From NCBI GenBank assembly GCA_020725805.1, contig DYEF01000065.1, positions 40,349 through 104,348 on the forward strand: a DNA stretch of 64,000 nt, given 5' to 3'. Each line of letters opens with the position of its first letter. The first letter of the stretch is position 1. Shown one piece after another: positions 1 to 35,534 of this stretch. The notes below the pieces were generated by a model that saw only the letters and a list, made by a program, of their open reading frames with translations, ran no database searches and was not told the DNA's origin. This stretch comes from Bdellovibrio sp. (GTDB lineage: Bacteria; Myxococcota; SpSt-1050). The translations under genes and the position numbers were made by a program.

Positions 1-1309
1 TATTCGCCTCTTCGCCGTTCTCACCATTGGAACCGTTCTCATCCTTAAGATTAAAGAGTTTCAGAAATCCTTCCGATATCAGTCTGGAACCTGTAGCCCT
101 GAATTCATAGGCACCCGACTCAATAATCACCGTCCTCTGTGCATAGACAGCAGGATTCATCTGGGAGGCCACAAATCTCTTCCATATGAGTTCATAAAGC
201 CTGAAATGGTCCCTTGGCAATACCTCTCTCAAGGAATCAGGAGCATATTCAACGTGGGTTGGTCTGATAGCCTCGTGCGCATCCTGTGAACGTCCCTTGG
301 TGCTGTAATAATTCGGATTTTCAGGCAGATAATCCTTCCCCCACCTCTCGGATATAAATTCCCTGACCGATCTTATCGCCTCTTCGGATACCCTCACGGA
401 GTCAGTCCTCATATAGGTAATGAGACCTTCGAGCCTTCCGTCTCCTATATCCATACCTTCATAAAGGTCCTGTGCAAGAGACATTGTCTTCTTGGCAGAA
501 AAGCCAAAAGCATTGAATGCCGCCTGCTGAAGTTTGCTCGTAATAAACGGGGGCGGAGGATTCTTTTTGCGCTGAGAGTCATTAACCGCAGATACCCTGA
601 AATATGAAAGCTGCCTGATGTGATTTCTGATATTCTGAGCTTCCTTTTCGCTCTCGACCGAGACCTTTTTATCTCCTATAGAGACAAGTTTTGCCCTGAA
701 TTTATCTGGCATCTCTCTGAAGAAGACACCGTCAAATTCATAATACTTCTTCCGCTCGAATTTCCTGATTTCCTCTTCCCGCATCACAACAAGTTTAACG
801 GCCACAGACTGAACCCTTCCGGCCGAAAGTCCGGGCATTACCTTTCTCCATAATATTGGGGAGATTAGATATCCGACAAGTCTGTCGAGGATTCTGCGGG
901 CCTGCTGACTCTGATATTTGTTCATATCCAGCTTCTGGGGATTCTTTATACTGTTTATGACCGCATTTTTTGTAATCTCATTAAAAAGAACTCTGTAGAT
1001 CTTCTCCTGAGGGACGTTTAGTTCTTCTGATATATGTACAGCAATTGCCTCACCTTCCCTGTCAGGGTCAGGACCAAGAAATATTTTATCGGATTTTTTT
1101 GCAAGTTCCTTCATCTTCTGAATAATCTTACCTTTTCCCTTAATGACAAAATAGACCGGTCTGAAATCTTTCTCGATCTCAACACCCAGATCACCCGAAG
1201 GCAGGTCCTTAACATGCCCCTGAGAAGCGATTACATTAAAATCCTTCCCGAGATATTTATTGAGGGTCTTTGCCTTTGACGGTGACTCCACTATCAGAAG
1301 ATTTGCCAT
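1..1309 (-). CDS. topA: DNA topoisomerase I, N-terminal ~436 codons; the C-terminus lies beyond the window start
   Basis: Minus-strand translation from ATG at 1309 reads MANLLIVESPSKAKTLNKYLGKDFNVIASQGHVKDLP...DPDREGEAIA, which are Toprim/topo IA motifs, and continues without a stop to position 1. It is missing from the ORF track because it is truncated by the window edge. Confidence 0.9.
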   Translation of the reverse strand, partial: MANLLIVESPSKAKTLNKYLGKDFNVIASQGHVKDLPSGDLGVEIEKDFRPVYFVIKGKGKIIQKMKELAKKSDKIFLGPDPDREGEAIAVHISEELNVPQEKIYRVLFNEITKNAVINSIKNPQKLDMNKYQSQQARRILDRLVGYLISPILWRKVMPGLSAGRVQSVAVKLVVMREEEIRKFERKKYYEFDGVFFREMPDKFRAKLVSIGDKKVSVESEKEAQNIRNHIRQLSYFRVSAVNDSQRKKNPPPPFITSKLQQAAFNAFGFSAKKTMSLAQDLYEGMDIGDGRLEGLITYMRTDSVRVSEEAIRSVREFISERWGKDYLPENPNYYSTKGRSQDAHEAIRPTHVEYAPDSLREVLPRDHFRLYELIWKRFVASQMNPAVYAQRTVIIESGAYEFRATGSRLISEGFLKLFNLKDENGSNGENGEEAN

Positions 1310-1311
1310 AA

Positions 1312-2421
1312 TCAGTAACTCCTTTTTCTGTATATCTTGCCGGGTAACTGCTCTATTATACCCTTAATCTCCATTTTCAGAAGCAGTTCATTTATCTCAC
1401 CCGGATTTTTATGTGATTTAACGAATATATCATCAATATGCAGTTCCTTACTTTGTGCAATTATATTGAAAATCAAAAGTTCATCATCAGTCATATTCTT
1501 CTCTGTAATGCCCTCGGTCTTTTCATTTCTGTCAATGCCCTCATTAAGTCCAAGAAAATCGAGAATTACCTTTTCGGAATAGATAATCTTTGCCCCTCTG
1601 GATATCAGATAATTCGGGCAGTACGACTTTTCTGAGTTAACCGGACCCGGCAGAGCAAAAACCGGAACAGACTTTCTGAAGGCATACTCCGCCGTCAATC
1701 CTGCTCCGCTCTTTTCTGAGCCCTCGATAACAAGAACAGCCTGAGAAATTTCAGCAATATACTGATTTCTTCTCACAAAGGTATATTCATTTGTCTCTTC
1801 AAGCGGGCCATATGCAGAAATTATCAGACCACCAGAATCAACAATTTTTTCAAAAAGCGGAATATTTACCGCAGGATAAGGTTTATCTATGGGCGTCCCC
1901 AGAAAGGCAATTGTCTTACCATGATTTTTCAGGGCAGAAGAGTGAGCAACCGTATCTATACCTGTAGCACCGCCGCTTACGATATTCGCGCTTTTGGCAA
2001 TTATTTCGACAAATCTTTCGGTCATTTCAATCCCGTAATTAGTAGGACTTCTGGTCCCCACAACCGCAATATTCCTGTTGTCAGCAACAGACAGATCACC
2101 CCTGTAGAAGAAGACCGGCAGAATTCTTAGTCCCGCAAAAACCGAAGGATAATTCCTGTCACAGAGAGTTGAAATCTTTATCCCCAGATCACTGCAAACA
2201 GACAGAATTCTGTCAATGTCGGTATCCTTAGACGATATATATTCAATCTCGTCATCGGAAAACCTGTATTTTTCCCTCTTTCCGGTAAGAAAATAGCTTA
2301 AACTCTCATACCCGCTCTCCCTGAAATCCATAAGCAGGTCGAAAAGTGACTTCTCACCGAAGCCCTTCTTTCTGAGCCTTTTAAGACCGATTATTTCCTT
2401 TATGAGGCCGTTTTCCGACAT
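1312..2421 (-). CDS. dprA: DNA processing protein DprA (Smf)
   Basis: 369 aa with the DprA Rossmann-like core (IAVVGTRSPTNYG...SGGATGIDTVAHSSAL...LVIEGSEKSGAGLTAEYA). It ends 3 nt before the topA start, the conserved dprA-topA arrangement. Confidence 0.85.
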   Translation of the reverse strand: MSENGLIKEIIGLKRLRKKGFGEKSLFDLLMDFRESGYESLSYFLTGKREKYRFSDDEIEYISSKDTDIDRILSVCSDLGIKISTLCDRNYPSVFAGLRILPVFFYRGDLSVADNRNIAVVGTRSPTNYGIEMTERFVEIIAKSANIVSGGATGIDTVAHSSALKNHGKTIAFLGTPIDKPYPAVNIPLFEKIVDSGGLIISAYGPLEETNEYTFVRRNQYIAEISQAVLVIEGSEKSGAGLTAEYAFRKSVPVFALPGPVNSEKSYCPNYLISRGAKIIYSEKVILDFLGLNEGIDRNEKTEGITEKNMTDDELLIFNIIAQSKELHIDDIFVKSHKNPGEINELLLKMEIKGIIEQLPGKIYRKRSY

Positions 2422-3117
2422 TAAAACTCTAACCTCTCAAAATTAAAGGTTTTCCCATTTATATCTTAATATCAAATCTGTCAAATAAAATTAGAAAAAA
2501 GTTTCTAACCTTTTGATATCAGGCTATATTTTTTATATCGTTTACCTTATATAGTAAAGTATCATTAATCAGAACCAGTTAATCCGGGATTTTGTAATAT
2601 TCAATAAAGGTGCCGAAACGGAAAATATTGATCCTGTTATAACCACTTTAGGTGCCAGTTACAAATTACTCAATTATTACAATTAGTTAGCGAATAGCCA
2701 CTCTGATTAATAATAAATATAGCCGTTGAGAAACCAGACAAATATGAATAGGGATATCAAATCAGAATCGGGCTCCTAAAGGTTTGGTATGCTTCTACCA
2801 AAAACATGGCAGTTCCTAATACAATAAAAGCCATTTATTTGATAAGTGCCGGTCACCACTAAAAGAAACTAATACCACATCTTACCAAATAAAGAAAACT
2901 AACCGAATTAAAATCCCTGTTCTGCTTCCTTTGCATCCTTAAAGCTAAGCTAAAGTATTAGATTAAAACTTTATGCTAACATATTAATATAATGAGATAT
3001 TTTACATTTGTATGAATTGACTGTATTCGCGGTAACTATATTCTTACAACAGATTGTTTTAATTTGACTAACTTTCGTTTGGGTAATATAATTACTCTTG
3101 TGATATGTTATGACGTT

Positions 3118-4224
3118 ATGAAGACCGGTAATGTAATTTATCCCTTTTTAATCCTTTCCCTTTTCAGCTGCTCAGTTGACTATTCAGTCCTTGAGGAAAG
3201 ATTCTGCAATTCCCAAAATCAATGTATAGAGGGCTATAAGTGTGATCTGGCAACCGGCAAATGCATAAAATCACCGGATTCATCGGATATATCTTTCAGG
3301 GATATCATATCGGATATTGACAGCGGGCTCACTGACCTGTTAACGGAAGATGTTAAGGACGACACCGATGACAGAAGTTATTCTGATACATATCAGGACA
3401 TAATTTCAGATATCAAAGACACAGGATATCCGGATATATCAAATGACAGCGGCCTGTGCGAAACCGGTATATTTACCTGCAGGGATAATGACCTCTACAG
3501 ATGTGATGAAAACGGCCTAATGGTACTCGAAAAGAGCTGTGAAATGGGATGCAAAAATGACCATTGTATTGAATGTCTGCCCAACGAAAAAGTCTGTACA
3601 GATGAAGAGAATCTCAGAATATGCAATCAGGAAGGTCTCTTCGAATCCCAGAAATGCACTTATAAATGCTATAACAATCAATGTGTAATCTGTCTGCCTA
3701 CCGACAAATACTGTAACGGCAAAAAGGCCCTGAAATGTAATCCGATCGGCACAAAATGGGAAGAGAAAGATTGTGAAATCGGGTGTTCGGCCGGAGAATG
3801 TATGATATGTGAACCGGAAGTTACAAAAAAATGTGTCGATAATGATATTTATACCTGTACTGCCTCCGGAATGGATTATTCAAAGACACAAAACTGTTGT
3901 CATGAAAACAACTGCACAGATGGCAATTGCGTAATTACTGCACCAAGAGTAACAGATTACAACCCGAAAGACTGGAAAGTCGGAGGCACTATTTACTGGG
4001 ATATATACGGATGCTTCTTTGTCAGTAATGCATCGAAGGTGATGATAGATTTTGGCGGTTCGTGGAAAGAAATTACCGAATACGACAATTATGAATATTC
4101 AATGAGAACAGAAGAACGTATTCAGATTAAGGTCAAGGTCCTGACCGGCACAGAATTCAATTTTAAGGTTGTAAATCCCGACGGTCAGAGTACTCAGCAA
4201 TATCCTATAAAAAAACACTATTAA
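3118..4224 (+). CDS. secreted Cys-rich repeat lipoprotein, function unknown
   Basis: Internal ATG at 3118 gives MKTGNVIYPFLILSLFSCS, a lipobox-type signal. An acidic D-I-S-D tract follows, then four tandem ~35-aa modules sharing the spacing C-x4-6-C-x3-G-x6-8-C-x2-G-C-x4-C-x2-C. The C-terminal ~100 aa has no Cys. Confidence 0.6.
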   Translation: MKTGNVIYPFLILSLFSCSVDYSVLEERFCNSQNQCIEGYKCDLATGKCIKSPDSSDISFRDIISDIDSGLTDLLTEDVKDDTDDRSYSDTYQDIISDIKDTGYPDISNDSGLCETGIFTCRDNDLYRCDENGLMVLEKSCEMGCKNDHCIECLPNEKVCTDEENLRICNQEGLFESQKCTYKCYNNQCVICLPTDKYCNGKKALKCNPIGTKWEEKDCEIGCSAGECMICEPEVTKKCVDNDIYTCTASGMDYSKTQNCCHENNCTDGNCVITAPRVTDYNPKDWKVGGTIYWDIYGCFFVSNASKVMIDFGGSWKEITEYDNYEYSMRTEERIQIKVKVLTGTEFNFKVVNPDGQSTQQYPIKKHY

Positions 4225-4248
4225 TAACATTGTAAAAAACTCACAGAT

Positions 4249-4779
4249 TTAACAATCGACGCATAAATATTTTTCTATCCTTAAAAGATTCTTTTTGCCT
4301 ATCCCCCTGATCTTTCCGAGGTCATCTGTCCTCCCGAATCTTCCGTTCTTTATCCGGTATTCTATAATTCTTTCTGCAACTGACTCTCCTATACCGTCAA
4401 TACTGATAAGGTCACTTAAACTTGCACTGTTTACATCAATCCTTAGCCCAAGCATAAGTCTCTCATAACCGCTCATCCAAAACGAACTTATTCTGCAGTC
4501 TTTATCCAAAAAAGCCTTTTTCCCGTATCCGACGTCAATGTCACTGATAACGCAACCGCATCTCTCGAGCAGTTCCAGACTTGGCAGATCCGTATACCTC
4601 CCCTTACAGTATAATGTCTTATAAACCCCGCAGCTCAACGGGACCTTATAGTCACAAAGAATATCTTCGGAATAGTACGAGAGTCCTCTCCCCTCCCTTA
4701 CCATCCCCAGAATACCCGCAGTTAAAGCAATTAAAGCAAAGAACAAAAACGAAAATCTACTCATTCTTATCCAGTTCAA
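4249..4779 (-). CDS. ComEA-like helix-hairpin-helix DNA-binding protein
   Basis: 176 aa with an N-terminal hydrophobic segment and a C-terminal tandem HhH region (DVNSASLSDLISIDGIGESVAERIIEYRIKNGRFGRTDDLGKIRGIGKKNLLRI) typical of ComEA. Confidence 0.65.
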   Translation of the reverse strand: MNWIRMSRFSFLFFALIALTAGILGMVREGRGLSYYSEDILCDYKVPLSCGVYKTLYCKGRYTDLPSLELLERCGCVISDIDVGYGKKAFLDKDCRISSFWMSGYERLMLGLRIDVNSASLSDLISIDGIGESVAERIIEYRIKNGRFGRTDDLGKIRGIGKKNLLRIEKYLCVDC

Positions 4780-5992
4780 ACGTCTCGTGCAGAATCCTCA
4801 GGGCAAGTTCCAGATAGTCCCTGCTTATGGCTACAGAAATCTTTATGTCGTTTGCATTGATATAATTGATATTTATCCTGTTTTTGGCAAGCACAGAGAA
4901 TATCTTGAAGGCAACATCAGGAGCCTTATAGAGTCCCGAACCTATAACAGAGACAACCGCTATGTTATCATCATACTCAACCGAGGAAGCCCCACACTCC
5001 TTTGCAAATTTCTCGGTAATTATATATGCCCTCTTTGCATCATCACGCAGTACCGTAAATGAAAGGTCTGATAGTCCGTCTATTGTCACAATATTACTGA
5101 TATCGAAGATATTTATACCATTCTCGACAAGGGGAGAAAAAATGCGCGCCGCAACTCCCGGCCTGTCCTGCAACTGATGTATGGATACCTTGGCTTTGTT
5201 AGGGTCACCGATTATGGATTTGACAATACTCTTTTTCATCTTTCCTCCCGAAATTAATGTATATTTCTCTGGCTCATAAAAACTTCTGAATTCTATTTCG
5301 ATACCCCATTCTTTTGCAAGCATAAGGTCATCGAGGTCGAAACTCGACGTATTGAGAGAAAGGATATTTGCTGCCTCGTCATAATCAAGTTCCCTTATAA
5401 GCCGGGCCTTCGACACATACTCCCTGTTGGAGGTAAAAAACAGCAAATCTTCCCTGTAATAGAGCACCTTACTCTGCCCCAGCAGTTTGGCAAAAAGAAT
5501 AGGAGTTACCCGGTCTGTTCCTCCGAGTATTCTGTCTATCTGACCCTTTTCATCAATTACTGAAAGACCGCTTACCAGAAGGACCGTACCTCTCTGAATA
5601 TTCTTTTCAATAAATTCACGGTAAAAATCCGGAATCGTCGGCTCTGTAAAGAGCTTGCGCTTCGGAATCTGAATCAGATTCTGGTCGAATTCAATAGTAT
5701 AAATACCTTTTGAGAGAAGGGCAAATTTCAGAATTCTGGAGGAAATATTTTCTGTAGGCCTGTAAAGCTGGTTGAATTCCGATTCCTGACTGATATTGTA
5801 AAAAGAGGAAATACTCTCCTTGAGGCTTTCATAGAATTTCCTGATATAGGGGACAATGATTATCAGGCTTTCCTGTGAATCAAAATGGCGCTTGATGATA
5901 TCTACACTTCTTCTGATATTTTCCACCGAATCGAACATCTTATGAGACAATCTGAGAATAGAAATCTTCTGCATTTTATTCGCCTTCCTCAT
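4757..5992 (-). CDS. aspartokinase-like protein (amino-acid kinase fold plus two C-terminal ACT domains), divergent N-terminus
   Basis: The central region resembles the aspartokinase catalytic C-lobe (GGTDRVTPILFAKLLGQ...LYYREDL...YDEAANI). The C-terminus has two ACT-like segments. The canonical KFGG(T/S)S glycine loop is not recognisable at the N-terminus. Confidence 0.5.
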   Translation of the reverse strand: MRKANKMQKISILRLSHKMFDSVENIRRSVDIIKRHFDSQESLIIIVPYIRKFYESLKESISSFYNISQESEFNQLYRPTENISSRILKFALLSKGIYTIEFDQNLIQIPKRKLFTEPTIPDFYREFIEKNIQRGTVLLVSGLSVIDEKGQIDRILGGTDRVTPILFAKLLGQSKVLYYREDLLFFTSNREYVSKARLIRELDYDEAANILSLNTSSFDLDDLMLAKEWGIEIEFRSFYEPEKYTLISGGKMKKSIVKSIIGDPNKAKVSIHQLQDRPGVAARIFSPLVENGINIFDISNIVTIDGLSDLSFTVLRDDAKRAYIITEKFAKECGASSVEYDDNIAVVSVIGSGLYKAPDVAFKIFSVLAKNRININYINANDIKISVAISRDYLELALRILHETFELDKNE

Positions 5993-13192: not shown

Positions 13193-13195
13193 ATA

Positions 13196-13468
13196 TTAAC
13201 CAAGAACCTCGTTCAGTTTTTCCTGTATTGAGTCAACAATCTGTTTTTCCATAATTCTTAGTAAAAATCCCAGAGTTAATTCCCCTTCAATAGAATTATC
13301 CATAATCACAAATTGTCCTTTTGCTCCGGAACCCTCAAAATTAACGACATAATCACTTTCCCATCTATAATTCAGATTATACCTGTTTGCAAATTCAGGA
13401 ATAACATTCGCAATCCTTTTTTTAGCCTCTTCTTTCCCCAAGGAATGATTCTTAACAATTCTTGCCAT
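13196..13468 (-). CDS. putative polyhydroxyalkanoic acid system family protein (PHA_gran_rgn-like), ~90 aa
   Basis: From the internal Met: MARIVKNHSLGKEEAKKRIANVIPEFANRYNLNYRWESDYVVNFEGSGAKGQFVIMDNSIEGELTLGFLL. The H..G..A...I...Y.L.Y.W.GD...F.GSG.KG..........L.L.GFLL pattern matches that small family as I recall it. Confidence 0.45.
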   Translation of the reverse strand: MARIVKNHSLGKEEAKKRIANVIPEFANRYNLNYRWESDYVVNFEGSGAKGQFVIMDNSIEGELTLGFLLRIMEKQIVDSIQEKLNEVLG

Positions 13469-13585
13469 AAAAATCCTCCTGACAGATAGACATCTACCAA
13501 AACACACTATAAAAGTAAAGAATTTATATCCATCATTATGAACCCGCAGAGCTTACAAATTCAGATAAACACCTAATAATTCAGT

Positions 13586-30630: not shown

Positions 30631-31191
30631 TTATTTAAGACCCATCTTTTTAAGAATGGACATTGCACTCGTTGTAGGTGATACGTCTTCGGGGAGATAA
30701 ATCATTACTCCGCCCTTGGCGGGTCTGACAGTGACTTTCCCCTCTTCTGTAAGCTGCTTGGTAACTTTTATCGGGTCCTCGCCGAAATACTCCTTGAAGG
30801 CCTGATTGAAGCCGGAATAGACGGAATGAATACCTTTGTATTTGGGAGGTCTGAGCTTTTCTATTGCAAGTCTGGTAAATTCCTCGTAACTCATCTTTTT
30901 GCTGTCATTCCTATCTATTCCCATCTTTTCGAATATCTGGGAGGTATTTACGGAAGGAGATACGTCCTCGGGAAGGTAAATCATTACTCCGCCCTTGGCA
31001 GGCCTGATAGCGATTTTACCCTCATCCGCAAGCTGTTTTGTGACCTTTATCGGGTCCTCACCGAAGTATTCCTTGAAAGCCTGATTGAAACCGGAAAATA
31101 CAGAGTGAATCCCTTTATACTTGGGCGACCTGAGAGTTTCAATGGACTTCTTAACAAATTCTTCATAGCTAAGTTTCTTTTCTTCTGACAT
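30631..31191 (-). CDS. protein made of two tandem ~93-aa repeats, function unknown
   Basis: The start is set at the internal ATG 31191 (RBS GGAGGA); the track ORF extends 40 codons upstream. The halves SYEEFVKKSIETLRSPKYKGIHSVFSGFNQAFKEYFGEDPIKVTKQL..GKIAIRPAKGGVMIYLPEDVSP and SYEEFTRLAIEKLRPPKYKGIHSVYSGFNQAFKEYFGEDPIKVTKQL..GKVTVRPAKGGVMIYLPEDVSP are nearly identical. Confidence 0.55.
   Translation of the reverse strand: MSEEKKLSYEEFVKKSIETLRSPKYKGIHSVFSGFNQAFKEYFGEDPIKVTKQLADEGKIAIRPAKGGVMIYLPEDVSPSVNTSQIFEKMGIDRNDSKKMSYEEFTRLAIEKLRPPKYKGIHSVYSGFNQAFKEYFGEDPIKVTKQLTEEGKVTVRPAKGGVMIYLPEDVSPTTSAMSILKKMGLK
30640..31191. repeat. intragenic tandem duplication, period 279 nt, ~80-85% nucleotide identity
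   Basis: The stretch beginning ggtgatacgtcttcggggagataaatcattactccgcccttggc near 30678 recurs as ggagatacgtcctcgggaaggtaaatcattactccgcccttggc near 30957. Confidence 0.8.
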
Positions 31192-31379
31192 CAGTAATCC
31201 TCCAGAAAAATTTACAATAATAATATCACAATAAAGTACAATGTCAAATATATAGTCCTTTTCTGTCAAGGCCACCCTGAAATTTATAAATAAATTCCTG
31301 AGCAAATCCACATTTTGGGCAAATTTTATAAACCGCTTCCTGTCTTATTGATATCTGTCTCAACATAAAGCCAAAAGAT

Positions 31380-31700
31380 ATCCCTTTATTGGCTATGGTC
31401 TGCGGACCGTCGACTGTCGACCGTGGACCATTATTGAACTTCAGCTCTTCCGCCTTCAGTTCTTCAGCACTTTTTCTCTGTAGATTATTAACTGTCGCTT
31501 CAATACACTCTATTACTCAGCGACCTTAATATTAGAATGATATTAAGTAGGCGAAACCATATCGAATTTTCCGATTTAAGTGGTGGCTTCGGTACACTTC
31601 GTTACTCAGCCACCTTAATAGCACTAACGCTTTCAGCTCTAAAAACTGTGACTATGGACTTCTTCCGTGGTCTGCGGACTGATATTACGTGCCTGAGAGC
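31380..31700. repeat. non-coding region with short dispersed direct and inverted repeats
   Basis: tggtctgcggac occurs at about 31396 and 31666. attactcagcgaccttaata and gttactcagccaccttaata sit about 80 nt apart. There is an imperfect palindrome around two gtcgac sites (31400-31435) and an 8-bp hairpin cttaatat/atattaag. Confidence 0.4.
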
Positions 31701-31702
31701 AA

Positions 31703-32641
31703 CTAACCTAATCTCTCTCCCGGCAGGACAGGATTCCCGGTGAGAAACTCCTTTACATTGAGAGGATTCTTCCCCTCTTTCTGGAGTCTTTTAATAATAA
31801 AAACTCCCTCTTTTGTGCTGACAAATATACCTCTTTCAGAGGATTCGATTACTGTACCCGGCACCGACGGATTGTGTTCCTGATAGTAATCAGCAGCCAG
31901 AACCTTTATAAGCGCACCTTTGTAATATGTAAAAGTCGAGGGCCAGGGATTGAGACCCCTGACAAGATTAAATAACTCCTTGGCCGGCTTTGAAAAATCA
32001 AGCCTTCCGTCCTCCTTTTTGAGCAACGGCGCATAAGTGGCAAGGGATTCATCCTGTTTTTCGTATTTTAAGGTGCCTTGAGTAAATCCTTCGATGAATT
32101 CCGGCAGCATACTACAGGCAAGCTCAACGAGCCTGTCGTGCAGAGATTCTGCATTATCCTCTTTTAGTATTGGTATTTCGCGTCTGAGCACAATATCGCC
32201 GGCATCCAGCCTGTAAACCACCTTCTGAAATGTTATACCTGTCAGCTCATCTCCGTTTATGATAGCCCAGTTTATAGGTGCCGGGCCCCTGTATCTCGGC
32301 AGAAGGGATGCGTGGATATTGAAAACGGAATCCTTCTTCATATCGAGAAATCTCTGAGAGAGAATCTTCCCGTATGCAGCAACGAGGATGAGGTCGAACT
32401 CCTTTTTTGATATATATTCGAGTGATTCGTCCGAATTGATATTGTCCGGAGAAAATACCTCTATATTATTCTGAAGGGCAAGCGATTTTGCCTCGGATAC
32501 CTTTATCTTCTTCCCCCTTCCGGCCGGTTTATCCGGCTGGGTTATTACCAGAACCGGTTTTGAAATATCAATGAGGGTTTTCAGTACCCCTGCGGCAAAA
32601 TCAGGCGTCCCCATAAAGATTATCTTACATTTTGAGTTCAT
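31703..32641 (-). CDS. fmt: methionyl-tRNA formyltransferase
   Basis: N-terminus IIFMGTPDFAAGVLKTL with the formyltransferase core (HASLLPRYRGPAPINWAI), 312 aa. It overlaps def by 17 nt. Confidence 0.9.
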   Translation of the reverse strand: MNSKCKIIFMGTPDFAAGVLKTLIDISKPVLVITQPDKPAGRGKKIKVSEAKSLALQNNIEVFSPDNINSDESLEYISKKEFDLILVAAYGKILSQRFLDMKKDSVFNIHASLLPRYRGPAPINWAIINGDELTGITFQKVVYRLDAGDIVLRREIPILKEDNAESLHDRLVELACSMLPEFIEGFTQGTLKYEKQDESLATYAPLLKKEDGRLDFSKPAKELFNLVRGLNPWPSTFTYYKGALIKVLAADYYQEHNPSVPGTVIESSERGIFVSTKEGVFIIKRLQKEGKNPLNVKEFLTGNPVLPGERLG

Positions 32642-33149
32642 TCTTTCTCTTCTTTGCCTCCTTTTTCAGTCTTCTGTAATAGAGTGCCTTTTTTAATGGT
32701 GACAGACGGTCCAGAAAGACAATCCCGTCGAGATGGTCGATCTCGTGCTGAATTACCCGCGCAATCAGTCCGTCATCCTCGGCAATATGTTCTTTACCTT
32801 CAGGGTCGAGATACCTGAATTTCACCTTTTTATATCTCTTCACCTCGTCCCGAATTTCCGGAACGGAAAGACACCCCTCCTCCATAACAAGTTCGCCTTC
32901 CCCGCCTATTACTTCAGGATTAATCATCTTCAGCAACTCCGATTTTTTCTCCTCTGTGGAGACATCGATTGTAACGAGCCGCATATCTATCCCCACCTGA
33001 CTTGCTGCAAGGCCTATACCGTTCGAGTAATACATTGTCTCTGCCATATCATCCAGAATTTTCAGAACCTCAGGTGTAATATCCTGAACTTTCTTGACCT
33101 TTTTCCTGAGGAAGGGATCCGGGACTTTCAATACTGTCAGAACTGCCAT
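32625..33149 (-). CDS. def: peptide deformylase
   Basis: The three PDF motifs are present: GIGLAASQVG, EGCLSVP and HEIDHLDG. 174 aa. Confidence 0.9.
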   Translation of the reverse strand: MAVLTVLKVPDPFLRKKVKKVQDITPEVLKILDDMAETMYYSNGIGLAASQVGIDMRLVTIDVSTEEKKSELLKMINPEVIGGEGELVMEEGCLSVPEIRDEVKRYKKVKFRYLDPEGKEHIAEDDGLIARVIQHEIDHLDGIVFLDRLSPLKKALYYRRLKKEAKKRKNELKM

Positions 33150-33158
33150 CTGAACTCC

Positions 33159-35534
33159 TTATAACATGTTTACAGGGTCAACATCAATACTGACCCTTAC
33201 ATTATGATGCTTTTTATATACAACAGGAATCAGATTTTTTAAAATTTTTCTTGCATTTACCATCTCTGTCGTCTTTATCATAAGCTGATATCTGTACTCG
33301 TTTTTTACCTTTTTCACAGGAGAGGGGACGGGACCTAAGACTTCGGACCTTTTGAGATTCAGAAGAGAATTTCTGAAAAAATCAAGTACCTCCTTACATC
33401 CGGACTCGTTATGTGAACGTGCCCTTATCAGAATAATCTTCGAGAAGGGCGGATAGAAGAGATTCTTTCTCCTCATAAGTTCGATTTCCAGATACTGATC
33501 CGGATTGCCGTCTTTTACCGCAATTATAGCCGGCTCGAACGGATTGAAGGTCTGAATAATGACTTCGCCCTTCTCTTCTCCGCGGCCGGACCTCCCCGAG
33601 ACCTGCATCAGAAGCTGCATAAGCCTTTCCTGAACCCTGAAATCAGGTATTGTAAATGCCGTATCGGCAAGAATGACACCTACAAGTGTTACATCGGGGA
33701 AGTGATGTCCCTTTGCAACCATCTGGGTTCCTATAAGGATATTGGCATCGCCTCTTACGAATCTCGATATGGTACTTTCGAGATCATAGAGATTGGCAAC
33801 CGAGTCCCTGTCGAGCCTGACAGTAACTGCACCGGGGATAATCTTTTTAACAATCTCTTCAATCTGCTCGGTTCCGAACCCAAGATTTTTTACTGATACA
33901 GAACCACAGCCCGGGCAGATATTTCTGACCTTTTCCGAATATCCGCAATAGTGACAGAGCAGAACCTCCTGTCTTTTATGATATACCAGATTGACATCAC
34001 AATCCGGACACCTGAAGATATAACCGCACCTTGAACAGATAAGGACTGTATTGAAACCTCTCCTGTTCAGCATCAGAATTGCCTTACGGTTACTACGGAC
34101 GGTATTCAGTAATGCCTCATATAGTCTCTCGCTGATAAAGAACGGAAGTCCCTCGACATCCTCCTCTTTCTTCTCACGGCTGGCAAGACTCACAATCTCG
34201 ACATCCGGCATAGGTTTTTTATTTGCCCTGACCGTAAGTCTGGAGTGCCCGAATCTTCCGGTCTTTATGTTATAGATACTCTGCACAGACGGTGTTGCAC
34301 TTCCGAGTATTACAATGCATCCTTCTGTCTGACCCCGTTTTATGGCTAAATCCCTGCCGTTGTAACGCGGGGATTCCTCCTGTTTGTATGCACTGTCGTG
34401 CTCCTCATCAACCACTATCAATCCTATATCTGACAAAGGCGCAAAGACCGCTGACCTCGCACCCACAACCACCTTTACCTCATTATTCCTGATTCTCAGA
34501 TACTCCCTTATTCTCTCCTTCTCCTGAAGGCCAGAATGCAAAACAGCCACATCACAACCAAGCGTTGCACGGATTCTGAAAATAGATTGTGGTGTAAGGC
34601 CTATCTCAGGCACGAGGAAGAGAACGGTTTTCCTCTCTTTCAGCACCTTTTCTGCAATTCTCAGATATACCTCGGTCTTCCCGCTTCCGGTTACACCGTA
34701 AATATAATGAACACCGAATCCTTCGTCTCTCATTTTATCTATATTTTCGATCGTTCTCTTCTGTTCGTCCGTCAGTTCTGTTACAGAAGAATCCCTTATT
34801 GTATATGCTTCCGGTGACGACTCAGAGCTCTGAATTCTTACAAGCCCCGTTTTGTAGAGATACCTGAGAATCCTTCTGTCCCTCAGAATGGTCAGAACAT
34901 CATAAAGCGGCATTCTTCCTCTTATGCTCAGTTCGTGAAGGACTGTCCCGACAGACGGGTATTTCTCTTCAATCCTCTTCAGTTCGTCCTTAGGCAATGA
35001 ATCTCCGGTCTCTGAGAGAACGACAAGATTCTTACCGGATTCACCGGCTCCCGGGACATCGAGAAACGCCTCTTTTGAGTTCAGATAACCGAAGATATCC
35101 GAAAGACTGATATTATGTTTTTTTCTGAGTGATTCGTAAGATGACAACCTTATGCTTTGGCTCCCTGAAATATTTTTTTCTGAATTGAAGACAAGTCTGT
35201 AATTCGACAGGTTAAGTAACCCCGATGGGATTGCAGAGAAGAGCATATTTCCCGGTGGCTCGATATAATAATCTGAAGCCCAGAGGAGAAGTTCGAACAT
35301 ATTCCTGCTAAAAACAGGATTGATGGGAAAAATGTCAATAATGGATTTCAGTTTTTCGTTCGGCAGACCTGATGTGTTGTTATTGCCGAGTCTCTTTATT
35401 ATACCGGTCTGAACGCTGTTCTTGAGAGGGACGATTACGGCAAAACCCTCTTTCACAACAGAGGATAAACTCTCAGGTACCCTGTATGTAAATGTCTCGA
35501 ACAACGAATTCTTTAATATTATCTCGGCAAACAT
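33159..35534 (-). CDS. priA: primosomal protein N-prime (PriA helicase)
   Basis: Superfamily-2 helicase motifs (GVTGSGKTEVY, DEEHD) and the PriA zinc-binding insertion with paired CxxC motifs (CSRCGYIFRCPDC...CHYCGYSE...CPGCG). 791 aa, upstream of def-fmt. Confidence 0.9.
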   Translation of the reverse strand: MFAEIILKNSLFETFTYRVPESLSSVVKEGFAVIVPLKNSVQTGIIKRLGNNNTSGLPNEKLKSIIDIFPINPVFSRNMFELLLWASDYYIEPPGNMLFSAIPSGLLNLSNYRLVFNSEKNISGSQSIRLSSYESLRKKHNISLSDIFGYLNSKEAFLDVPGAGESGKNLVVLSETGDSLPKDELKRIEEKYPSVGTVLHELSIRGRMPLYDVLTILRDRRILRYLYKTGLVRIQSSESSPEAYTIRDSSVTELTDEQKRTIENIDKMRDEGFGVHYIYGVTGSGKTEVYLRIAEKVLKERKTVLFLVPEIGLTPQSIFRIRATLGCDVAVLHSGLQEKERIREYLRIRNNEVKVVVGARSAVFAPLSDIGLIVVDEEHDSAYKQEESPRYNGRDLAIKRGQTEGCIVILGSATPSVQSIYNIKTGRFGHSRLTVRANKKPMPDVEIVSLASREKKEEDVEGLPFFISERLYEALLNTVRSNRKAILMLNRRGFNTVLICSRCGYIFRCPDCDVNLVYHKRQEVLLCHYCGYSEKVRNICPGCGSVSVKNLGFGTEQIEEIVKKIIPGAVTVRLDRDSVANLYDLESTISRFVRGDANILIGTQMVAKGHHFPDVTLVGVILADTAFTIPDFRVQERLMQLLMQVSGRSGRGEEKGEVIIQTFNPFEPAIIAVKDGNPDQYLEIELMRRKNLFYPPFSKIILIRARSHNESGCKEVLDFFRNSLLNLKRSEVLGPVPSPVKKVKNEYRYQLMIKTTEMVNARKILKNLIPVVYKKHHNVRVSIDVDPVNML

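Follow-up and report, generated by a model that had tools for sequence, protein, structure and literature searches.

BOX elements of Streptococcus pneumoniae are composite repeats with the order boxA–boxB(n)–boxC, in which the number of boxB modules varies (PMC3049150), and BrickBuilt from Porphyromonas gingivalis has been described as a minisatellite-containing MITE (PMC4596501). When stem-loops of the REP/BIME, ERIC, Correia, or BOX type are co-transcribed, they can alter the stability or termination of the mRNA (PMC3049150). Small dispersed repeats also shape bacterial genomes through rearrangements, breaks in assemblies, and changes in the stability of neighboring transcripts. REP elements in 3′ UTRs, for instance, stabilize the upstream mRNA. 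To our knowledge, very few small dispersed repeats have been described outside cultivated model organisms.

The locus analyzed here lies in a 64-kb stretch of DNA (the window; positions 1–64000, with all coordinates counted on its + strand), where a puzzling gap of 0.5 kb occurs in a housekeeping operon. We conclude that this gap is probably occupied by one copy of a modular intergenic repeat that is non-coding, restricted to one lineage, not described before, and similar in kind to BOX and BrickBuilt, and this element accounts for the gap. Members of the family occur at four or more unrelated intergenic sites, with neither a gene of their own nor a fixed partner gene. It provides a defined example from an uncultivated lineage, with an unusual nested tandem architecture and no classical transposon hallmarks, and might find use as a strain-typing marker or as a test case for the spread of repeats that lack terminal inverted repeats.

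The gap downstream of fmt

The gap is 511 nt long (31192–31702), rather than the approximately 390 nt given in an earlier note on this DNA, because the gene for a 186-aa protein on its far side (the duplicated-domain gene) starts with the ATG at 31191. This start lies behind a GGAGGA ribosome-binding site, and the homologues of the protein are 186 aa in length and align over 100% of it. The homologues support this start, and the GTG at 31311 that appears in the ORF list is not the start of this gene. The same note had stated that the other gaps between genes are shorter than 100 nt, which is roughly correct, but the ORF list also leaves long gaps at 2422–3063 and 13193–13585. Neither of these two regions (642 and 393 nt) contains an ORF that reaches 110 aa, and either could harbor small genes or features of another, non-coding kind.

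We compared the flanks with seven related assemblies that carry the duplicated-domain gene (84–92% protein identity) and with two that carry fmt. Among the seven, conservation in front of the duplicated-domain gene is limited to about 60 nt, which correspond to the promoter and the ribosome-binding site. The upstream neighbor of the gene is a different one in every one of these assemblies, and these neighbors include an NHL-repeat protein, an FHA protein, PrkA, SMC, and a stretch with 23S motifs that is probably an rRNA operon. Because this neighbor differs in all seven, we place the duplicated-domain gene at a recurrent rearrangement breakpoint. On the other side, the downstream flank of fmt in the two relatives consists of a convergent gene 13 nt away in one and an unrelated AT-rich spacer in the other. 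Because the relatives keep only the promoter region, about 430 nt of the gap is specific to the lineage of the window. The GC content of this lineage-specific part (0.35–0.52) is coding-like and unlike that of the AT-rich spacers of the clade.

The view of the earlier note that the region is not a simple promoter agrees with these data, since the downstream gene has its own conserved promoter, which is distinct from the element and lies outside it (Table 1). This strong promoter (TTGACAT...TGaTATTAT) and the ribosome-binding site are nearly invariant across the relatives (loci L001–L010). A riboswitch or leader reading of the gap was rejected. No Rfam family reached its gathering score anywhere in the 64-kb window, which therefore is without tRNA, rRNA, riboswitch, or known sRNA.

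In one related assembly, the 5 kb upstream of the duplicated-domain gene (L007, positions 1–5000) contains no ORF longer than 126 aa. This stretch was considered as a repeat array and rejected after conserved 23S rRNA motifs, such as GGAGTGAAATAGTACCTGAA, were recognized by eye. Given these motifs, the duplicated-domain gene in this assembly probably follows an rRNA operon.

Table 1. Positions of genes, signals, and element parts in the window.
Feature	Position	Strand	Remarks
Gene for 186-aa protein with two tandem copies of one domain	30631–31191	−	Weak LiaF-like_C Pfam match (sole Pfam hit); downstream of gap
Sigma-70-type promoter of the 186-aa gene, TTGACA-16-TGaTATTAT	31220–31247	−	Conserved in relatives; outside element
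Weak terminator-like hairpin GCCAAUAAAGGGAUAUCUUUUGGC, then U-rich tract UUUAUGUU	31355–31393	−	Beyond element in fmt direction; uncertain
5′ array of GTGGAC/GTCGAC-type 7–8-nt motifs (TATGGTCTGCGGACCGTCGACTGTCGACCGTGGACC)	31394–31429	+	Holds first 12-mer and double-SalI palindrome
Element 5′ start motif CATTATTGAAC, then CTTCAGC(N) octamer array	31430–31470	+	
Stem-loop module A	31494–31531	+	Stem GTCGCT/AGCGAC; conserved 19-nt interior (TCAATAC...TTACTC); CCTTAATA tail
51-nt linker	31532–31582	+	Conserved between loci; imperfect inverted copy of stem-loop interior (ATTAAGTAG...ATATCGAA)
Stem-loop module B	31583–31620	+	Stem GTGGCT/AGCCAC; interior and tail same as A
3′ part: degenerate CTTCAGC motif CTTTCAGCTCT, then GTGGAC-type array CTATGGACTTCTTCCGTGGTCTGCGGACTGAT	31631–31683	+	Holds second 12-mer
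fmt (methionyl-tRNA formyltransferase)	31703–32641	−	Last gene of priA-def-fmt; element in its 3′ flank
def	32625–33149	−	
priA	33159–35534	−	

Architecture of the element

Most of the repeats that had drawn attention to the gap were recovered on re-examination. Across the 64-kb window there are exactly two occurrences of the 12-mer TGGTCTGCGGAC (31396–31407 and 31668–31679), one at each end of the region as reported. When the gap was shuffled 60 times at the mononucleotide level, 1 of the 60 shuffles yielded an equally long exact repeat, and the 12-mer by itself is therefore only marginal. The two 20-mers are also real and correspond to the 3′ part of a 38-nt direct repeat, whose copies (modules A and B in Table 1) are identical at 31 of 38 positions and lie 89 nt apart from start to start. 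This repeat is well beyond chance, because the best 38-mer match in the 60 shuffles reached only 24/38. The double-SalI palindrome GTCGACTGTCGAC was found at 31409–31421, and the AT hairpin CTTAATAT/ATATTAAG at 31525–31547, where it is formed by the 5′ part of the linker and the tail of module A. What did not hold was the proposed UUCG-like tetraloop (GGCTTCGGTAC), which is replaced by TTCGAT, TTCAAT, or TTCTAT in other copies and does not form a tetraloop in the predicted folds.

These repeats are parts of one composite element that extends from approximately 31394 to 31683. Read along the + strand, its roughly 290 bases comprise a GTGGAC/GTCGAC array, a CTTCAGC octamer array (CTTCAGCT CTTCCGC CTTCAGTT CTTCAGCAC), stem-loop A, a 51-nt linker, stem-loop B, one degenerate CTTCAGC motif, and a second GTGGAC-type array that ends 19 nt from the fmt stop codon. 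The two stems differ by a compensatory change from C–G in module A to G–C in module B. The stem-loop interior recurs in inverted orientation within the linker, which could therefore pair with the module on either side.

Three periods are nested within this arrangement: the arrays of 7–8 nt (CTTCAGCN, NGTGGAC/GTCGAC), a module of 89–91 nt that consists of one stem-loop and one linker and is present 1.5 to 2.5 times, and the whole unit of about 272 nt. Both 12-mers represent the same register of two consecutive GTGGAC arrays, separated by this whole-element period of 272 nt. They are internal array motifs, with similar arrays in the other copies, and do not represent a target-site duplication made by insertion.

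The 5′ array of the window copy aligns with the 3′ end of the other copies and therefore probably represents the tail of an incomplete unit lying upstream. It runs into CCATTATTGAACTTCAGC just as the 3′ end of the copy at locus L031 runs into CATAATGATTTCAG, which indicates that the window holds a head-to-tail junction and about 1.15 units. The start motif CATTATTGAAC is the counterpart of CATCAAAAC in other copies, and the 5′ ends of the copies at loci L021 and L031 begin with CATCAAAACTTCAGC.

Other copies and their surroundings

Metagenome contigs were scanned with the exact 19-mer TTACTCAGCNACCTTAATA, which yielded 17 loci. Thirteen match the 19-mer only, and the remaining four (L021, L022, L031, and L037) align to window positions 31491–31640 with 76–81% identity over a core of 123–150 nt. 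Because its sequence is identical, L037 represents the L022 locus from another sample. All copies were thus retrieved through a single exact 19-mer, so that conservation around it is biased by retrieval, and with four loci the copy number and boundaries of the family are poorly defined.

Read along the + strand of the window, the architecture common to all copies consists of a CTTCAGC(N) array, stem-loop A (GTCGC, about 22 nt, GCGAC), the 51-nt linker, stem-loop B (GTGGC, about 22 nt, GCCAC), a second CTTCAGC(N) array, and a GTGGAC/GTCGAC-type array that finishes with ...GGACTAT. Two stem-loops and one linker are present in the window, L021, and L022, whereas L031 carries three stem-loops and two linkers, and the 89–91-nt module therefore varies in number. 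On the 5′ side, the GTGGAC-type array is strong in the window and degenerate in L022. The linker is about 75–80% conserved between unrelated loci and is also conserved between the two linkers of L031. Within the approximately 130 kb examined, the elements are the sole places where GTGGAC/GTCGAC and CTTCAGC motifs form dense clusters.

The neighbors, locus by locus, are fmt and the duplicated-domain gene; MscS and a Cys-rich protein; a 217-aa gene (beside dnaA) and a 1016-aa gene; and an EamA transporter. Tetranucleotide composition at L021, L022, and L031 correlates with that of the window at 0.95–0.965, compared with 0.75–0.865 for related species, and the nearest relatives of the DnaA encoded at L021 belong to the same "Deltaproteobacteria/Myxococcota bacterium" MAG clade as the relatives of the window. 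From composition, the DnaA clade, and the unrelated neighbors, the four loci are most likely paralogous copies in one genome or species, and very likely they belong to one genome or to nearly identical genomes. The stored sequence of L031 (positions 1–40) starts inside the element; if the contig truly ends here, its assembly stopped at the repeat, a break that would fit the presence of multiple copies.

At L038, from a related species whose DnaA is 83% identical, the orthologue of the 217-aa gene ends at the same ...DYDSP stop and is followed by an unrelated AT-rich spacer; the element is absent at this orthologous site. The relatives likewise lack it in the 3′ flank of fmt (two assemblies) and in front of the duplicated-domain gene (seven assemblies). 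No further copies were detected with nhmmer profiles, built from the core or from a single stem-loop, in 380 kb of collected sequence. A scan of 185,579 species-representative genomes with the 19-mer gave eight hits, none of them element-like beyond the 19-mer itself, where about 17 chance matches are estimated (18 specified bases, 596 Gb, both strands). The viral contigs and the plasmid and phage collections gave no match to the element.

The earlier note had held that repeats unique to this locus would speak against its proposal. They prove instead to belong to a dispersed, multi-copy family, which favors a miniature repeat element.

In three of the four loci, the right end of the element lies 2–19 nt from the stop codon of a gene on the minus strand, namely fmt in the window, the 217-aa gene in L021, and a 543-aa gene in L022. 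Nothing resembling a terminator was found between stop codon and element, and for this reason co-transcription as a 3′ UTR appears most likely: the reverse complement of the element would be transcribed passively as part of the 3′ UTR of priA-def-fmt. By analogy with other co-transcribed repeats, its stem-loops could affect the stability or termination of the fmt mRNA 3′ end rather than act as a dedicated regulator. The hairpin beyond the element in the direction of fmt transcription has a predicted energy of −8.8 kcal/mol (z = −0.8), and a consensus terminator scan did not call it.

Promoter-like or terminator-like sites show no positional conservation among the copies, and there is consequently no sign of an independent sRNA gene. 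Weak promoter-like hits on the minus strand in the window and L022 were discarded as a conserved sRNA promoter, their positions being non-homologous. None of the small ORFs in the gap matches a Pfam family or is conserved in the other copies, and a tblastx comparison of the window with the L022 copy gave about equal identities for the top three reading frames (59–69%). Between the element and the promoter, a 40-codon ATG ORF (MLRQISIRQEAVYKICPKCGF...; 31244–31366, minus strand) encodes a single CPKC half zinc-ribbon motif and sits within a stop-free frame of 91 codons that spans part of the gap on the minus strand. This ORF is probably spurious, because it has no Pfam match, is not conserved in relatives, and overlaps the promoter.

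Comparison with described repeats and rival explanations

The closest kinds of described elements are the composite intergenic repeats, BOX and BrickBuilt, and more loosely REP/REPIN. Like BOX, the element is small, non-coding, strictly intergenic, dispersed, multi-copy, and built from modules, with terminal modules that flank a variable number of tandem internal modules, here the 89–91-nt stem-loop and linker. Both are predicted to form stem-loops if transcribed, and BOX is often co-transcribed with neighboring genes, as the element probably is here. However, the boxA and boxC ends pair and resemble the terminal inverted repeats of insertion sequences, whereas the flanks of the element are direct copies of the same short-motif arrays. 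The element probably shares no sequence similarity with BOX; it lacks any match in Rfam, plasmids, or phages, and its host belongs to an unrelated phylum. Four loci are known here, compared with the more than 100 copies that BOX reportedly has per pneumococcal genome. BrickBuilt shares a restriction to one species, invariably intergenic positions, and leader and tail subunits with a short tandem repeat in between, but its ends are small inverted repeats and its array is made of one 23-nt tandem unit with no spacers, whereas the element has two kinds of 7–8-nt arrays, stem-loop modules of about 90 nt, and no inverted ends.

REP/BIME, REPIN (mobilized by RAYT), and hairpins derived from IS200/IS605 resemble the element in being based on stem-loops and in lacking terminal inverted repeats and target-site duplications. 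REP-type repeats also typically lie just past stop codons in 3′ UTRs and contain inverted unit copies that are able to form a longer hairpin. They differ in being 20–40 nt long, GC-rich, and present in hundreds of copies, whereas the inverted unit of the element (interior versus linker) is AT-rich and about 22 nt long. GTAGG occurs in four of five linkers, and the palindrome expected after a GTAG-type head is not conserved. The sequence examined showed neither a RAYT nor a TnpA gene.

Regarding mobility, repeat searches over the four copies and their flanks revealed no terminal inverted repeats joining the ends. No target-site duplication was found: flanking direct repeats are absent from L021 and L022 and, outside the element's own arrays, from the window. 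Without these two hallmarks, the element is not a MITE in the strict sense, although dispersed intergenic copies in one genome, as expected of a MITE, are present (four loci, with the shared genome inferred). The genes of the 64-kb window include no transposase, integrase, or cas domains. Because no candidate transposase accompanies the missing terminal inverted repeats and target-site duplication, mobility is deduced solely from dispersal and from presence or absence. Dispersal, variable module number, lineage restriction, and absence at an orthologous site nevertheless point to a non-autonomous repeat, which would have spread in the manner of BOX, REP, or BrickBuilt-type elements, and tandem slippage may then have changed the number of modules. 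The sequence identity of about 80%, the order in which A is kept first and B last, and the compensatory change could equally reflect selection on function. With respect to the original proposal of structured RNA or a decayed MITE, a dispersed miniature repeat family is indeed present; an Rfam hit, a conserved fold, terminal inverted repeats, and a target-site duplication were not found.

An unlikely alternative is that the family represents a multi-copy structured non-coding RNA, either an sRNA or a product of 3′ UTRs, whose modules and arrays would titrate an RNA-binding protein or act as a switch, the latter idea arising from the capacity of the linker to pair with either neighboring module. 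Each stem-loop has a stem of 5–7 bp, its loop sequences are its most conserved parts, and one stem position is C–G in all four A-type copies and G–C in all five B-type copies, so that pairing is kept through the exchange in 9/9 copies with zero mismatched combinations. Folding energies lie somewhat below those of shuffled controls (z = −1.2 to −2.2), the GC content is coding-like rather than that of an AT-rich spacer, and several helices have G–U pairs that exist on the + strand only (the inner helix in seven of nine copies, plus P2 and X2:Y2). On the other hand, the compensatory change arose only once, before the family dispersed. The imperfect inverted copy within the linker (TTCGATAC...TTACTCAG versus TTGAGTA...GTATCGAA) permits several mutually exclusive helices, in that the RNA could form either the local stem-loops together with a CUUAAU/AUUGAG hairpin or a long hairpin between interior and linker that involves the upstream or the downstream module. 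All of these helices are 80–95% paired in five aligned units, and no covariation separates them. The patterns of G–U versus A–C slightly favor the + strand for some helices, whereas X1:Y1 favors the minus strand, and minimum-free-energy folds differ between copies. Since the folds differ, the z values are modest, and the competing helices are paired equally well, a specific conserved RNA fold is not demonstrated. The Infernal/Rfam check suggested in the earlier note gave no meaningful covariance-model hit at gathering or permissive thresholds: the gap region produced chance-level hits only (at most 22 bits versus thresholds of 33–80), and nothing was found in L021, L022, or L031 at E ≤ 1. Also unfavorable to an RNA are the lack of a promoter or terminator conserved among the copies, an orientation relative to flanking genes that is not constant, and the lack of a true match in the species-representative genomes, which include the clade if it is represented there.

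Quite improbable in our judgment is a role at the level of DNA, in which the arrays and inverted repeats would be bound by a DNA-binding protein, such as a recombinase, a regulator, or a nucleoid or partition protein, or would adopt a cruciform structure. The confinement of dense short-motif clusters to the elements, the inverted copies in interior and linker that could extrude as a cruciform, and the location of one copy about 800 nt from dnaA are consistent with such a role, but the 7–8-nt period does not fit the helical repeat of DNA, no known binding consensus was recognized, the contexts are unrelated, and no associated protein gene is conserved beside the copies. Scarcely any weight can be given to an orphan or degenerate CRISPR mini-array, a type III antitoxin (ToxI-like) repeat array, or the remnant of a decayed gene. 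Such arrays resemble the element in their regularly spaced, partly palindromic repeats of about 36–38 nt (here 38 nt), and the 91-codon stop-free frame could suggest a former gene. However, the intervening 51 nt, which would be the spacer, is conserved both between unrelated loci and within L031, which excludes a CRISPR array; only two or three repeats are present, and neither cas nor toxN-like genes nor any other consistent neighbor accompanies them. The CRISPR and type III antitoxin readings were rejected on these grounds, and for a decayed gene the frame is not conserved, lacks a Pfam match, and shows similarity that is independent of reading frame. The gap should accordingly not be annotated as an sRNA or a CRISPR array.

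The composite intergenic repeat remains our preferred reading. There is a small chance that the family instead points to something new in this uncultivated Myxococcota/'Deltaproteobacteria' lineage, such as a class of modular RNA with alternating stem-loops and anti-stem-loops and oligomer arrays that might act as a switch or as a sponge for RNA-binding proteins, or a mobile element that lacks terminal inverted repeats and might move via single-stranded DNA hairpins.

Four independent assemblies of a related species (L039–L042, positions 1–215) all have contigs that end 160–215 nt upstream of dnaA, which suggests that a repeat or other hard-to-assemble sequence is present there.
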